Of a DNA stretch of 64,000 nt, positions 34,645-49,036 are shown in pieces. Positions within the stretch are counted from its first letter, which is position 1. Each line of letters opens with the position of its first letter. The position numbers were made by a program, and so were the translations under genes. The stretch lies in the NCBI RefSeq assembly GCF_055900595.2, contig NZ_CM148325.1, one strand, 5' to 3'. The notes beneath the pieces are model-generated. The model was not told the DNA's origin. It did no database searches and worked only from the letters and a program-made list of their open reading frames with translations.

Positions 34645-34675
34645 GTCGGATGCGGCGCGAGCGCCTTATCCGACC
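34645..34675. repeat. REP element between lacY and lacA
   Basis: GTCGGATGCGGCGCGAGCGCCTTATCCGAC palindrome. Confidence 0.7.
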
Positions 34676-34700
34676 AACATATCAGGACGGAATGATCAAA

Positions 34701-35312
34701 ATGAACATGTCGATGACAGAAAGAATAAAAGCAGGAAAGCTATTTACCGATATGTGCGAAGGCTTACCTGAAAAAAGACTTCGTGGGAAAACATTAATGT
34801 ATGAGTTTAATCACTCGCATCCAGCGGAAGTTGAAAAAAGAGAAAGCCTGCTTAAAGAAATGTTTGCCACGGTAGGGGAAAACGCCTGGGTTGAACCACC
34901 TGTCTATTTCTCTTACGGCTCCAACATCCATATAGGCCGCAATTTTTATGCAAATTTCAATTTAACCATTGTCGATGATTACACGGTAACGATCGGTGAT
35001 AACGTACTGGTTGCCCCCAACGTTACCATTTCCGTTACGGGACACCCTGTACACCATGAATTAAGAAAAAACGGAGAGATGTACTCTTTTGCGATAACGA
35101 TTGGTAATAACGTCTGGATCGGCAGCCATGTGGTCATTAATCCAGGCGTCACCATCGGGGATAATTCTGTTATTGGCGCGGGAAGTGTCGTCACAAAAGA
35201 CATTCCACCAAACGTCGTAGCTGCTGGCATTCCTTGTCGGGTTATTCGCGAAATAAACGATCGGGATAAGCAATATTATTTCAAAGATTTTAAAGTTGAA
35301 TCGTCAGTTTAA
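34701..35312 (+). CDS. lacA: Galactoside O-acetyltransferase (hexapeptide-repeat)
   Basis: ORF 34650-35312; start set at MNMSMTERIKAGKLFTDM... giving 203 aa. Confidence 0.93.
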   Translation: MNMSMTERIKAGKLFTDMCEGLPEKRLRGKTLMYEFNHSHPAEVEKRESLLKEMFATVGENAWVEPPVYFSYGSNIHIGRNFYANFNLTIVDDYTVTIGDNVLVAPNVTISVTGHPVHHELRKNGEMYSFAITIGNNVWIGSHVVINPGVTIGDNSVIGAGSVVTKDIPPNVVAAGIPCRVIREINDRDKQYYFKDFKVESSV

Positions 35313-35324
35313 ATAAGCAAAATT

Positions 35325-35400
35325 GCCTGATGCGCTCCGCTTATCAGGCCTATAAGTTCAGTGATCTACGTAGGCCGCATCCGGCGTAAACAAAGCGCAG
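35325..35400. repeat. REP/BIME between lacA and cynX
   Basis: GCCTGATGCGCTCCGCTTATCAGGCC and GTAGGCCGCATCCGGCG units. Confidence 0.75.
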
Positions 35401-35414
35401 GAACGAGCGTCGCA

Positions 35415-36569
35415 TCATGCCTCTTTGACCCACAGCTGCGGAAAACGTGCTGGTGCAAAACGCAGGGTTATGATCATCAGCCCAACGACGCACAGCGCAT
35501 GAAACGCCCAGTCCATCAGGTAATTGCCACTGATACTACGCAGCACACCAGAAAACCACGGAGCAAGCCCGGCAATGATAAAACCGATCCCCTGCATAAA
35601 CGCCACCAGTTTGCCAGCAATAGCGGGTTGCGCAGAGTGATCGAGCGCCAGCAGCAAACAGAGCGGAAATGCGACACCCAGACCTAACCCACACACCATT
35701 GCCCACAATACCGGCAATTGCAGCGGCAGCCAGATAAAGCCGCAGAAACCCACCAGTTGTAACGCCAGTGCCAGCATTAATAGTTTGCGCCGATCCTGAT
35801 GGCGAGCCATAGCAGGCATCAGCAATGCCCCTGCGGCTTGACCAAGCGTCATCAACGCCAGCAAGGAACCGCTGTACTGCGTGCTGGCACCGATCTCAAT
35901 ATAGAAGGCGGGTAACCAGGCAATCAGACTGGCGTAACCGCCGTTAATCAGACCGAAGTAAACACCCAGCGTCCAGGCGCGGGGAGTGAAGACTACGCGA
36001 ACCGGAGTGGTTGTTGTCTTGTGGGAAGATACGACCTCGCGGGAGCTTTGCCACCACCAGGCAAAGAGCGCAATAATGGCAGGCAGCGCCCACCAGGCGA
36101 GAGTCTGGAACCAAATCTCGCTGTGTTGAACTAACCAGGGCGTCAGGGCGGCACCAAGTCCACCGCCGCCCATCAGAGCCGCAGACCACAGCCCCATCAC
36201 CAGTGGCGTGCGCTGCTGAAACCGCCGTTTAATCACCGAAGGCATCACCGCCTGAATGATGCCGACCCCCACTCCACCGAGCAGTGCGCTGCTAAGCAGC
36301 AGCACACTTTGAGGGTAAAGCTCTCGCATCAATGCGCCGACGGCTATCAACAACAAACTGATGGCGACGCTGCGACGTTCGCTGACATGCTGATGAAGCC
36401 AGCTTCCGACCAGCGCCAGCCCGCCCATGGTGACCACCGGCAGAGCGGTCAACAGGGCAGCCACGCTAAAGCTCATTCCGCTCGCCTGGCGCAATTGCGG
36501 TAGCAGTGGCCCGACGGAGGTGAGCAGTGGTCGCATATTAAGACCAATCAGCACCAGAACCAGCAGCAT
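35415..36569 (-). CDS. cynX: Cyanate MFS transporter
   Basis: ORF 35415-36596; start set at MLLVLVLIGLNMRPL... giving 384 aa. Confidence 0.88.
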   Translation of the reverse strand: MLLVLVLIGLNMRPLLTSVGPLLPQLRQASGMSFSVAALLTALPVVTMGGLALVGSWLHQHVSERRSVAISLLLIAVGALMRELYPQSVLLLSSALLGGVGVGIIQAVMPSVIKRRFQQRTPLVMGLWSAALMGGGGLGAALTPWLVQHSEIWFQTLAWWALPAIIALFAWWWQSSREVVSSHKTTTTPVRVVFTPRAWTLGVYFGLINGGYASLIAWLPAFYIEIGASTQYSGSLLALMTLGQAAGALLMPAMARHQDRRKLLMLALALQLVGFCGFIWLPLQLPVLWAMVCGLGLGVAFPLCLLLALDHSAQPAIAGKLVAFMQGIGFIIAGLAPWFSGVLRSISGNYLMDWAFHALCVVGLMIITLRFAPARFPQLWVKEA

Positions 36570-36601
36570 CGTGAACGTCTTTTGATGGTCGCGCATGGCT
36601 G

Positions 36602-37072
36602 TCAGAACGGTTTGGTCGGCAGATATTTACCATCTAAAGTGATGACCGCACGTTCGCCACCTTCCGGGTCCGCCACTTTCTTGACGTCGAGTTTGAAGTT
36701 AATCGCACTGATAATGCCATCGCCAAACTTCTCATGAACCAACGCTTTCAGGGTCGTACCGTACACCTGCAACATTTCATAGAAACGGTACATCGTTGGG
36801 TCGGTTGGAACACGGTCATCAATGCAGCCACGCAGTGGAATCATCTGCAACAGTAAAATGGCGTCTTCGTCGAGCTCCAGCTTCGCCCCGACCAGGCGGG
36901 CAGCGTCGGCAGGAAGCGCCTGCTGACCCAGCAAAGCCGCGGTCACAAAGGCTTCTGCCAGCCCGGTGCCGTCGGCAATCTCGGCAAATGTGAGATCTTT
37001 TTTAGCTTTGCTGAGCAAAATAGCATCGGCAAGATCAAGACGAATATTGCGGTTAATTTGCGACTGAATCAT
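36602..37072 (-). CDS. cynS: Cyanase (cyanate hydratase)
   Basis: 156 aa [29 protein letters not shown]... Confidence 0.95.
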
Positions 37073-47176: not shown

Positions 47177-47222
47177 AGCCCATCCTTTGTTATCAACTTG
47201 TTATTTACGTTGATAAACTCAA

Positions 47223-47238
47223 AGCAAGGGGTGTGCCA
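47223..47238 (-). promoter_or_regulatory. sigma54 promoter for prpBCDE: TGGCAC-ACCCC-TTGCT on the minus strand
   Basis: Perfect match to the -24/-12 consensus TGGCAC-N5-TTGCW, about 47 bp upstream of the prpB ATG. Confidence 0.8.
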
Positions 47239-47313
47239 CAATTACCTGGATGAAATTAAATGTTATATTTCAATTTGTTATAGATAAAGCCATGAAGTAA
47301 TCCGCAAATATGC

Positions 47314-47371
47314 GTTTCAGTTAACGTTTCAGGCAATGTTTCACTGCGTTTCATTGCAACAATTATGAAAC
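47314..47371. promoter_or_regulatory. Array of GTTTCA hexamers (four direct, one inverted as TGAAAC): candidate PrpR enhancer
   Basis: GTTTCA at about 47314, 47326, 47338, 47348 with 10-12 bp spacing and TGAAAC at 47366; sits 75-135 bp upstream of the sigma54 promoter. Confidence 0.4.
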
Positions 47372-47414
47372 AAGACTAAACCCAATATTCGGTTTCTTAA
47401 CTTTGCGGTGCGCT

Positions 47415-49001
47415 ATGGCACATCCACCACGGCTGAATGACGACAAACCGGTTATCTGGACGGTATCTGTAACGCGGCTGTTCGAGCTGTTTCGCGATAT
47501 CAGTCTCGAGTTTGATCACCTGGCGAATATCACCCCTATTCAGCTTGGCTTTGAAAAAGCGGTGACCTACATCCGCAAAAAACTGGCCAGCGAACGCTGC
47601 GACGCCATCATTGCCGCTGGCTCTAACGGTGCGTACCTGAAAAGCCGCCTGTCGGTACCGGTGATTCTGATAAAACCGAGTGGCTACGATGTGTTACAGG
47701 CGCTGGCAAAAGCCGGAAAACTCACCTCTTCTATCGGCGTTGTCACCTATCAGGAAACCATTCCGGCACTGGTAGCGTTTCAAAAAACCTTTAATTTGCG
47801 CCTCGACCAACGTAGCTACATTACCGAAGAAGACGCACGCGGGCAGATTAACGAGCTAAAAGCTAACGGCACCGAAGCGGTGGTCGGTGCGGGGCTGATT
47901 ACCGATCTGGCAGAAGAAGCCGGAATGACCGGAATTTTTATTTATTCCGCCGCCACCGTGCGCCAGGCGTTCAGCGATGCGCTGGATATGACGCGCATGT
48001 CGTTACGCCATAACACTCACGATGCCACCCGCAACGCCCTGCGTACTCGTTACGTGCTGGGCGATATGCTCGGTCAATCACCACAGATGGAACAGGTACG
48101 GCAGACTATTTTGCTGTATGCCCGCTCCAGTGCGGCGGTGTTGATTGAAGGGGAAACGGGGACGGGCAAAGAGCTGGCGGCCCAGGCGATTCATCGGGAA
48201 TATTTTGCCCGCCACGATGCGCGACAGGGCAAAAAGTCGCATCCGTTTGTTGCCGTCAACTGCGGGGCGATTGCTGAATCTCTGCTGGAAGCGGAGCTGT
48301 TTGGCTATGAGGAAGGAGCGTTTACCGGCTCGCGACGCGGAGGACGCGCCGGGCTGTTTGAAATCGCCCACGGTGGCACGCTGTTTCTTGACGAGATAGG
48401 CGAAATGCCGCTGCCGTTGCAGACCCGGCTACTGCGGGTGCTGGAAGAAAAAGAGGTCACTCGCGTCGGCGGGCATCAGCCTGTTCCGGTGGATGTGCGG
48501 GTTATTAGCGCCACTCACTGCAATCTCGAAGAGGATATGCAGCAAGGGCGTTTTCGCCGTGATCTGTTTTATCGACTGAGTATTTTGCGTCTGCAATTGC
48601 CGCCGCTACGCGAGCGGGTGGCGGATATTCTGCCGCTGGCGGAAAGCTTTTTGAAAGTGTCACTGGCGGCACTTACTGCGCCTTTTTCTTCCGCGTTACG
48701 TCAGGGATTACAGGCAAGTGAAACTGTGCTATTGCGCTACAACTGGCCGGGAAATATTCGTGAACTGCGCAATATGATGGAACGACTGGCGCTATTTTTA
48801 AGTGTGGAACCAACGCCGGATTTAACGCCGCAATTTTTGCAGTTGCTACTGCCGGAACTGGCGCGCGAGTCGGAGGAAACTCCCGCTCCACGTTTACTGA
48901 CGCCACAACAGGCACTGGAGAAATTTAATGGCGATAAAACTGCCGCGGCCAATTATTTAGGTATCAGCCGAACGACATTCTGGCGGCGGCTGAAAAACTG
49001 A
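47415..49001 (+). CDS. prpR: Sigma54-dependent transcriptional activator of the prp operon
   Basis: ORF 47403-49001; start set at [22 protein letters not shown]... giving 528 aa; AAA+ sigma54-interaction domain ([14 protein letters not shown]) and C-terminal HTH. Confidence 0.92.
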
Positions 49002-49004
49002 AAT

Positions 49005-49036
49005 GCCGAATCCAGCGCGAACGCCTTATCCGGCAT
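49005..49036. repeat. REP element between prpR and yahO
   Basis: GCCGAATCCAGCGCGAACGCCTTATCCGGCAT. Confidence 0.7.

Follow-up and report, generated by a model that had tools for sequence, protein, structure and literature searches.

It has been known since the 1980s that REPs occur at gene 3' ends in E. coli, among them those around lac, and for K-12 the literature gives totals of about 355 REP elements and about 600 units. The REP between malE and malF was reportedly presented as an mRNA stabiliser by Newbury in 1987, and Liang, Rudd and Deutscher are credited, in 2015, with a mechanism in which a stop-proximal REP damps translation. A role at transcript 3' ends is supported by Dar and Sorek 2018 (PMC6061677), and a 2026 preprint supports it with dual terminator and stabiliser behaviour. 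Cleavage assays indicated that TnpA-REP needs the GTAG tetranucleotide directly 5' of the palindrome (PMC8266576). Moreover, Cas9 breaks in lacZ produced deletions of 12.9-35 kb that were REP-ended in 11 of 14 clones, and the origin of F'128 was ascribed to a REP-REP exchange (PMC4872102).

The window analysed here is a stretch of 64 kb from an E. coli strain other than K-12, and the analysis was centred on positions 34645-49036, from lacY to yahO. The REPs of this range are already known and ordinary for E. coli, and K-12 has REPs at these junctions. They carry little weight as a discovery; their practical use lies in the exact coordinates of the units in this strain.

REP units from lacY to yahO

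REP units had been reported in the earlier note after lacY, lacA, cynR, prpE and prpR, and all five sites hold units of the REP family. A single-unit covariance model, R1, was made because naRNA4 (RF02564), the sole REP-derived family in Rfam, models two units. R1 was trained on 24 REP units, of which unlinked K-12 loci supplied 17 and arrays of the window (17.5, 19.7 and 60.8 kb) the other 7, none of them inside 34645-49036, and was searched over the full 64-kb window with filters off. This profile scan, which the same note had proposed as a check, set the five units (27.2-50.1 bits) apart from noise of at most 19 bits: the top non-REP match in the window reached 15.1 bits, and where matches reached as much as 18.7 bits, they were just true palindromic units read on the other strand. 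Beyond the known units, the window-wide R1 search found no other REP in the range, whose two ends fall within 2 nt of its outermost units. The main units and the structures beside them are the following (window positions):

34644-34678, (-) strand: Y-type REP between lacY and lacA (R1 50.1 bits; 5 edits from Y)
35324-35353, (-) strand: Z1-type (short) REP, convergent lacA/cynX junction (R1 37.3 bits; 2 edits from Z1)
35370-35386, (+) strand: remnant of the partner Y in the lacA/cynX BIME (GTAGGCC^GCATCCGGCG), read from the sequence; the Y is intact in BCE049
38770-38793, no strand assigned: non-REP perfect 10-bp hairpin (AGCCGCTGAC-ACAG-GTCAGCGGCT) overlapping the cynR stop codon
38799-38828, (-) strand: Z1-type REP, convergent cynR/codA junction (R1 42.6 bits; 1 edit from Z1)
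38840-38863, (+) strand: truncated partner Y at cynR/codA, from the K-12 alignment (8 edits from Y; shuffles gave no fewer than 9)
41577-41614, (+) strand: Z2-type (long) REP between prpE and codB (R1 40.8 bits; 4 edits from Z2)
41625-41656, no strand assigned: Y-derived perfect palindrome between prpE and codB, paired with the Z2 unit in a BIME-like manner (R1 13.8 bits)
49004-49038, (-) strand: degenerate Y-type REP, convergent prpR/yahO junction (R1 27.2 bits, E 1.7e-6; 6 edits from Y)

The edits were counted by an edit-distance scan against the Y, Z1 and Z2 consensus; as a control, the 64-kb window was shuffled 200 times with its dinucleotides preserved. The nearest chance match among these shuffles lay 9 edits from Y, 6 from Z1 and 9 from Z2. 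At gathering thresholds, Rfam gave zero matches in the range. The naRNA4 score remained below its gathering value of 59.5, with a top match of 41.7 bits (41580-41655) that aligns the prpE-codB pair over the full 77-position model; sub-threshold matches were obtained at four of the five sites (41.7, 33.1, 25.7 and 23.1 bits), and gathering-level ones only outside the range, at 17.5, 19.7 and 60.9 kb of the window. Alignments and a REP scan of K-12 itself were used to assign orthology, and REPs were observed at matching junctions in K-12, Sakai, Ceylon31 and BCE049. The five units belong to the E. coli REP/BIME family as ordinary copies of types Y, Z1 and Z2, lie at the positions listed above and have orthologs in K-12.

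All five main units fold into an outer and an inner stem split by an internal loop (AA/GC mismatch criterion, PMC8266576). Two variants of the mismatch were seen: the yahO unit of the window has AA/GG, and the palindrome at 41625-41656 is perfect and has none. The GTAG box is intact in two of the five main units, 38799-38828 and 41577-41614 (the latter with a degenerate 5' arm), and is mutated to GTTG at lacY, to ATAG at lacA and to TTAT at prpR/yahO. Having lost GTAG, these three units are probably immobile now. Since GTTG and TTAT are common to K-12, they point to fixed, probably immobile copies and not to non-members of the family.

Decayed partner units adjoin three of the five main units. 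BIME pairs in opposite orientation, made of Z1, a 16-nt linker and a decayed Y, are found at lacA/cynX and cynR/codA; the prpE-codB pair consists of Z2, an 11-nt linker and the Y-derived unit, and single units are found only at lacY-lacA and prpR/yahO. The remnant at 35370-35386, not significant by R1 or by the consensus scan, lacks about 18 bp of its interior, as it does in K-12 and Sakai. At 38840-38863, GTAG and the adjoining arm are gone through a 16-bp deletion. The ortholog of the 41625-41656 palindrome in BCE049 is a canonical Y. Three partners having been truncated or symmetrised, most of the copies in the range are old and fixed, and probably immobile.

Every unit lies between annotated genes, and a REP is present in each in-range intergenic region with the 3' end of a transcription unit (lacA/cynX, cynR/codA, prpE-codB and prpR/yahO). 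No REP was found in the divergent promoter regions cynT/cynR and prpB/prpR. In the whole window, all 21 REP units, at 8 loci, are in spacers that hold a gene 3' end and none in the 6 divergent spacers; REPs are borne by 4 of 6 convergent spacers versus 4 of 32 tandem ones (Fisher p = 0.012). Unlinked K-12 sequence, 100 kb in all, held a further 18 units. With the genome-wide rates of K-12 (207/704 convergent and 146/2597 tandem pairs), about 1.3 REP-bearing junctions are predicted for the range, against 5 present (post hoc p ~0.001-0.005), and the window as a whole is not unusual, with 8 REP loci versus 4.9 expected (p = 0.12). The placement at convergent or operon-end junctions claimed in the earlier note agrees with the three convergent junctions, but the lacY-lacA unit lies within the lacZYA operon, and is thus at neither kind of junction, and prpE-codB is a tandem pair.

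Hairpins and transcript 3' ends

We consider it likely, with a probability of roughly 0.7, that the REP/BIME units in 3'-end spacers act by hairpin-set 3' ends. Once transcribed, the units would form G+C-rich hairpins that no U-tract follows, and transcription would pass through the REP and be ended further downstream, largely by Rho. Exonucleases acting 3' to 5' would then trim the transcript back as far as the REP hairpin, giving the steady-state 3' end, and the same hairpin may also partly attenuate read-through into the next gene. The action favoured depends on context and combines partial termination by Rho with a block to degradation. Within the lac operon, the likely effect of the lacY-lacA unit is a lacA message lower than the lacZY message, with no marking of an operon end.

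Published K-12 data document this behaviour for yahO, and for the other transcripts we infer it. In K-12 Term-seq (Adams 2021, PMC7815308, supplementary file 1), a strong 3' end on the yahO strand was mapped at 346858(+), 4 nt past the REP, which corresponds to window position 49000. It was detected under each of the three growth conditions, its score reaching 64,659, and a bicyclomycin-sensitive region of Rho termination lies about 540 nt downstream, at 347398(+) (PMC7815308). A further REP-adjacent 3' end of K-12 was mapped at 377325(-), in the frmB/yaiL array, which is likewise present in the window (PMC7815308). The lac, cyn, cod and prp operons were silent in these conditions (PMC7815308), and their 3' ends are unmapped in this dataset because they were not expressed. 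In the comparison with term-seq data suggested in the earlier note, its proposal of 3'-end stabilisation was directly supported for yahO alone, a transcript that it had not named. The unit at prpR/yahO, 2 nt past the prpR stop codon and 60 nt past that of yahO, plausibly serves the yahO transcript rather than prpR; this corrects the list of transcripts served, as does the intra-operon position of the lacY-lacA unit.

The fold of the prpR/yahO unit reached -17.8 kcal/mol on the yahO strand versus -9.9 on the prpR strand, and the 13-bp hairpin at 41625-41656 reached -22.0 kcal/mol on the prpE mRNA strand versus -14.3 on the opposite one, so that both fold about 8 kcal/mol better on the transcribed strand. 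The lacY-lacA hairpin has -19.2 kcal/mol on the lac mRNA strand, and the fold of the cynR/codA junction gave z = -3.3 for the cynR strand and -2.7 for that of codA. A general rule of better folding on the transcribed strand was rejected, as symmetry is the case for canonical units, and in the unit at 19783-19819 the transcribed strand has the weaker fold, by 4.5 kcal/mol. The REPs were also rejected as intrinsic terminators for their want of U-tracts. A terminator scan (21 sites vs 21.9 expected) placed no canonical intrinsic terminator at these junctions; its only match there was in the Z2 unit, where TTATTAT (UUAUUAU on the prpE mRNA strand) comes after the inner hairpin.

Some observations count against hairpin-set 3' ends. 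Z1 hairpins are weak, about -13 kcal/mol at lacA/cynX, where the fold of the whole spacer is no better than that of shuffles, and genome-wide, terminal REPs show no association with a longer mRNA half-life. REPs can be dispensed with at some junctions, being absent at cynR/codA in Ceylon31 and at prpB-prpC, which fits neutral residence no less than a function.

The distances to the stop codons bear on another explanation, that a REP starting less than 15 nt past the stop stalls the terminating ribosome and lowers the output of the upstream gene, a rule taken here as it is summarised in PMC12306157. The measured distances agree with it at lacY (8 nt), lacA (11 nt), prpE (4 nt, to the 41625-41656 palindrome) and prpR (2 nt); the cynR/codA Z1 unit lies 27 nt past the cynR stop, and the Z2 unit 46 nt past that of prpE, with the codB start 152 nt further downstream. 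However, the argument is one of distance, and the hairpin on the prpR strand is the weak one (-9.9 kcal/mol). As the principal role, translational damping is considered unlikely; being compatible with hairpin-set 3' ends, it could also lower upstream-gene translation at these four genes.

Variation between strains and gene-content alleles

The number of REP units per junction varied across strains from 1 to 15 at prpE-codB, from 0 to 8 at prpB-prpC and from 0 to 4 at cynR/codA. No REP was present at prpB-prpC in the window, Ceylon31 or BCE049. The cynR/codA spacer of Ceylon31 is REP-less and only 39 bp long, with the cynR-stop hairpin as its sole structure, and the pairing of this hairpin is kept there by a two-sided change (CCACTGAC/GTCAGTGG). 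Among 5,426 genomes, the lacY-lacA junction was found in 4,747, the prpR/yahO junction in 5,189 and a cynR/codA junction of the window type in 2,465. The regular landmark for transcription units put forward in the earlier note therefore holds in this strain only: unit number and presence differ between E. coli lineages and, at lacA/cynX, the weak hairpin and junction fold speak against it. REP positions and copy numbers are not transferable between strains when transcription units are defined.

Such variation is what would be expected of neutral residents, REPIN/BIME relics of non-autonomous mobile DNA moved by the REP transposase, which would have settled in 3' spacers as the least harmful sites and have no role in the neighbouring transcripts. 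The large differences in copy number and presence, the restricted occurrence of the window-type cynR/codA junction, the decay of several units (internal deletions and lost GTAG boxes) and the missing half-life effect are all on its side. Neutral residence is nevertheless judged improbable, given the abundant yahO 3' end mapped exactly at the hairpin and the genome-wide expression shift in REP-bearing tandem and convergent gene pairs. In addition, the 49 nt of REP in the lacY-lacA spacer do not differ between the window, K-12, Sakai and BCE049, four lineages whose flanks differ by about 5%, and the transcribed-strand hairpin of the yahO unit is kept despite decay: between the window and other strains, one inner-stem pair has changed from G.U to A-U, a compensating change that preserves it.

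On either side of the cyn cluster lies a direct copy, about 70 bp long, of one and the same Z1-linker-Y BIME (35321-35391 and 38796-38868). In the cyn-less allele, present in 986 of the 5,426 genomes, exactly one hybrid BIME lies between lacA and codA, and in the lacA-less allele (532/5,426) the joint is within a Y-type palindrome. Together with the REP-ended Cas9 deletions and the formation of F'128 (PMC4872102), these alleles favour a role in DNA, in which the REPs would chiefly be short dispersed homologies for cassette recombination, or gyrase/IHF sites, rather than RNA elements. However, recombination follows from the presence of repeats and does not have to be a function under selection, and neither the 3'-end placement nor the yahO 3' end is explained in this way, so a role in DNA instead of RNA appears rather doubtful.

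Two readings that go slightly further than textbook REP biology are offered tentatively. In one, immobile, decayed REPs would be selectively kept as strand-specific RNA hairpins, and their substitutions would preserve pairing (G.U, then A-U) solely for the mRNA with its 3' end at the unit (yahO and prpE). In the other, REP/BIME copies at the operon ends here would be the exchange points of two common polymorphisms in gene content, in which the cynTSX-cynR cassette and lacA were lost or gained, and the regular pattern of REPs would mark the borders of cassettes as much as the ends of transcripts.

Comparison with known REP systems

The units show no categorical difference from described E. coli REP/BIMEs, which they resemble in consensus, in the palindrome with its AA/GC mismatch, in their location in 3' spacers, in pairing in opposite orientation and in tandem amplification in other strains; particular to this range are the three mutated GTAG boxes and the three truncated or symmetrised partners. 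The repeat family is shared with naRNA4/REP325 of yjdM-yjdN, a model REP in work on dual terminator and stabiliser behaviour, and the lacY-lacA unit is likewise intra-operon, between tandem genes. REP325 has 12 units, whereas the loci in the range are single units or one pair, all below the gathering score.

With respect to the malE-malF stabiliser and the Rho-terminated 3' ends set by hairpins (PMC6061677), yahO in K-12 is alike, with a U-tract-free hairpin just upstream of the steady-state 3' end and a Rho region further downstream; the likeness is documented for yahO, and would extend to lac, cyn, cod and prp.

Finally, the alleles of cyn and lacA resemble the REP-mediated rearrangements of lac, F'128 and the Cas9 deletions (PMC4872102), in that the joints are in REPs flanking genes of the lac region. 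They differ from the laboratory deletions in being small (about 3.5 kb for cyn and 0.7 kb for lacA) and common, and may represent either loss or gain. The presence-absence alleles that break at REPs are a natural counterpart of the REP-mediated lac deletions obtained in the laboratory.

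Gene order and REP units

A 16-kb stretch of the window shares 95-99.9% identity with E. coli chromosomes. The stretch is collinear with strain 100117 and runs opposite to K-12 numbering. The genes around the REP units are:

30256-33330, +, lacZ
33382-34635, +, lacY
34701-35312, +, lacA
35415-37762, -, cynX, cynS and cynT
37872-38771, +, cynR
38892-41424, -, codA and codB
41661-47176, -, prpE, prpD, prpC and prpB
47415-49001, +, prpR
49099-49374, -, yahO

Upstream, an MBL-fold hydrolase gene and a GlxA-family regulator gene lie between mhpR and lacI (27265-29014). Both are absent from Ceylon31, where mhpR directly precedes lacI, and BCE049 retains a fragment of the pair and also lacks the mhp operon.

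The REP units of E. coli have GTAG followed by an imperfect palindrome in which an AA/GC mismatch is conserved; they are 35 (Y), 29 (Z1) and 37 nt (Z2) long (PMC8266576). Sequences like these three types were read in five spacers between 34645 and 49036. For the profile scan, a covariance model of the single unit (R1) was trained on 17 units of K-12, taken from two unlinked 50-kb regions, and on seven units of the window arrays at 17.5, 19.7 and 60.8 kb, all from outside this range so that the test would not be circular. Searched over the whole window with filters off, R1 detected 21 units scoring 27-60 bits, five of them within the range. The remaining scores, up to 18.7 bits, were the reverse strands of true palindromes, and the best unrelated match reached 15.1 bits.

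REP units within 34645-49036 (R1 score; edits from the type consensus)
34644-34678, Y unit between lacY and lacA: 50.1 bits; 5 edits
35324-35353, Z1 unit between lacA and cynX: 37.3 bits; 2 edits
38799-38828, Z1 unit between cynR and codA: 42.6 bits; 1 edit
41577-41614, unit between prpE and codB: 40.8 bits; 4 edits
49004-49038, unit between prpR and yahO: 27.2 bits; 6 edits

Decayed partner units
35370-35386
38840-38863
41625-41656

In 200 dinucleotide shuffles of the window, the chance floor was 9 (Y), 6 (Z1) and 9 (Z2) edits. The naRNA4 model (Rfam RF02564), which describes a two-unit BIME, gave sub-threshold matches at four of the five sites and reached its gathering level in the window only outside the range. 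The five palindromes listed in the earlier note thus belong to the REP family, at 27.2-50.1 bits against at most 15.1 for unrelated sequence. That list was also complete, since the R1 search found no further REPs in the range beyond the decayed partners.

The GTAG box is mutated in three of the five main units. Because TnpA-REP tolerates no change in GTAG (PMC8266576), these three copies are probably fixed and immobile. The decayed unit at 41625-41656, like its orthologues in comparison loci L008 and L007, is a REP derivative without the AA/GC mismatch and thus a perfect palindrome (GTCGGATGCG...CGCATCCGAC). This palindrome, which looks like a symmetrised Y unit, recurs after prpE, after lacA in strain E26 and at a lacY-cynX joint. 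Elsewhere in the window, a G+C-rich palindrome, GCCGGGCGCAGCACAAACGCCTGCCCCGGC (11775-11809), lies between the gene for an ABC substrate-binding protein and that for its permease, in a spacer of 68 bp. Its likeness to REP is weak, at 14.2 bits and a distance of 10 edits from Y, and it may represent a different palindrome class.

Placement and strain variation

The presence of REPs at transcript ends is a sound idea and a long-known feature. In K-12, REPs occur in 207 of 704 convergent and 146 of ~2,597 tandem gene pairs (preprint 10.64898/2026.03.23.713779). At these rates, the three convergent and seven spaced tandem junctions of the range would be expected to include ~1.3 REP-bearing ones, against five observed (post hoc p ~0.001; a simple density calculation gives 0.005). 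Over its full length the window is not exceptional, with eight REP loci against 4.9 expected; REPs were found in 4/6 convergent, 4/32 tandem and 0/6 divergent spacers. The placement at convergent or operon-end junctions proposed previously holds for the convergent lacA-cynX, cynR-codA and prpR-yahO junctions and for the tandem operon end at prpE-codB, but not for the unit between lacY and lacA, which lies inside the lacZYA operon. Between the prpE-codB REPs and codB there is a cod promoter-like site (41540-41512).

Another array, of eight alternating Z1/Y units, separates yahI from yahG (60783-61148). In the closest annotated genome, a "hypothetical protein" (WP_072000926.1) has been called across it, almost certainly a spurious ORF.

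As regular landmarks, the role suggested for them in the earlier note, the units proved uneven. The lacY-lacA and prpR-yahO junctions are conserved (4,747 and 5,189 of 5,426 complete genomes, respectively), and a 49-nt REP segment of the lacY-lacA spacer shows no differences among the window, K-12, Sakai and BCE049. By contrast, unit counts vary widely at prpE-codB (one good unit in the window and Ceylon31, three in K-12, four in BCE049 and 15 in Sakai), between prpB and prpC (none in the window, two in Sakai, eight in K-12) and at cynR-codA (none in Ceylon31, one in the window, two in Sakai, four in K-12). The window-type cynR-codA junction is present in only 2,465 of the 5,426 genomes.

In the window (46242-46285), Ceylon31 and BCE049 the prpC-prpB spacer measures 44 bp and is an "empty site"; the units of Sakai and K-12 (K-12 locus L002, 5074-5512) constitute a clean polymorphism of intra-operon REP insertion and amplification. 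The four cynR-codA units of K-12 derive from a tandem duplication of ~200 bp (L002, 12984-13264) that takes in the BIME together with the cynR-terminal hairpin and ~85 bp from the 3' end of cynR; in the window this segment is unduplicated, and its Y unit has a deletion of 16 bp.

Hairpins and mapped 3' ends

A scan found no canonical intrinsic terminator at any of the REP junctions, so hairpins lacking a U-tract are the main structures there. The Y unit after lacY folds at ~-19 kcal/mol and the two Z1 units at ~-13 kcal/mol each. Whole-spacer folds clearly beat shuffles at prpE (z = -3.5) and cynR-codA (z = -3.3); the lacA-cynX fold was no better than shuffles. Distinct from the REP, a hairpin with a perfect 10-bp stem overlaps the stop codon of cynR. 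In Ceylon31, where this junction has no REP, that hairpin is kept through changes on both sides, which makes it the older structure and the REP an addition beside it.

The proposed role at 3' ends was compared with published Term-seq data from K-12. An end at 346858(+), recorded under each of the three growth conditions and scoring up to 64,659 (PMC7815308, supplementary file 1), was placed by its listed flanking sequence 4 nt past the orthologue of the 49004-49038 unit, on the yahO strand. A Rho termination region lies ~540 nt further downstream, at 347398(+) (PMC7815308, supplementary file 2). This arrangement fits the model of Dar and Sorek (2018), which has Rho-dependent termination downstream followed by exonuclease trimming as far as the hairpin (PMC6061677). 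The fold of the unit depends strongly on the strand, with -17.8 kcal/mol for that of yahO and -9.9 kcal/mol for that of prpR; two C-to-T changes produce G.U pairs in one strand where the other has A.C mismatches, and one of these G.U pairs is A-U in K-12, Sakai, Ceylon31 and BCE049. Given the mapped end and this asymmetry, the best reading of the REP "after prpR" is as the hairpin at the 3' end of yahO.

The second REP-adjacent K-12 end, 377325(-), lies in an array that is also present in the window, as six Y/Z2 units at the convergent fghA(frmB)-yaiL junction (17483-17769), one repeat period fewer than in strain 100117. This end has a score of 100,650 and follows a Z2 unit by 9 nt. From 346858 to 377325 the Term-seq list has no entries in between, as lac, cyn, cod and prp are not expressed in LB or M63-glucose; a stabilising or terminating role in their transcripts is putative.

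A 3'-end role has direct support for yahO, but "stabilisation" alone is too narrow a label, since expression is shifted around REPs with no genome-wide effect on half-life (preprint 10.64898/2026.03.23.713779). According to the summary of Liang et al. (2015) in PMC12306157, a REP no more than 15 nt from a stop codon can cause ribosomes to stall at termination. The units after lacY (8 nt), lacA (11 nt), prpE (4 nt) and prpR (2 nt) lie within this distance, making such stalling a possible further role.

Natural gene-content variants with breakpoints at REPs

The cyn cluster (cynX to cynR, 35415-38771) is bracketed by direct copies of one BIME (35321-35391 and 38796-38868), both built as AATT, Z1, a 16-nt linker, Y and TAAAC. 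The genes from cynX through cynR are missing in 986 of 5,426 genomes (18%), including BCE049 and the type strain ATCC 11775; loss of the cyn operon has been reported for phylogroup B2 (PMC6896753). In cyn-less genomes, exactly one BIME separates lacA from codA (comparison locus L009, 15814-15933); it is a hybrid, with a Z1 and linker like the lacA-side copy and an intact Y and right flank like the codA-side copy.

In another 532 of the 5,426 genomes (10%), lacA is missing, and the lacY-cynX joint falls within a Y-type palindrome (L008, 15137-15214; L010, 990-1076). The left arm matches the lacY REP (34644-34678) and the right part a variant palindrome that E26 and other strains carry after lacA. 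This variant, TGTCGGATGCGCCATTGGGCACATCCGACA, stands in some strains in place of the Z1 BIME after lacA. The joint is consistent with an exchange between the lacY REP and TGTCGGATGCGCCATTGGGCACATCCGACA.

Both natural alleles, cyn-less and lacA-less, break at REPs, in parallel with laboratory events: in 11 of 14 clones, Cas9 cuts in lacZ gave deletions of 12.9-35 kb with REPs at their ends, and F'128 originated by REP-REP exchange (PMC4872102).
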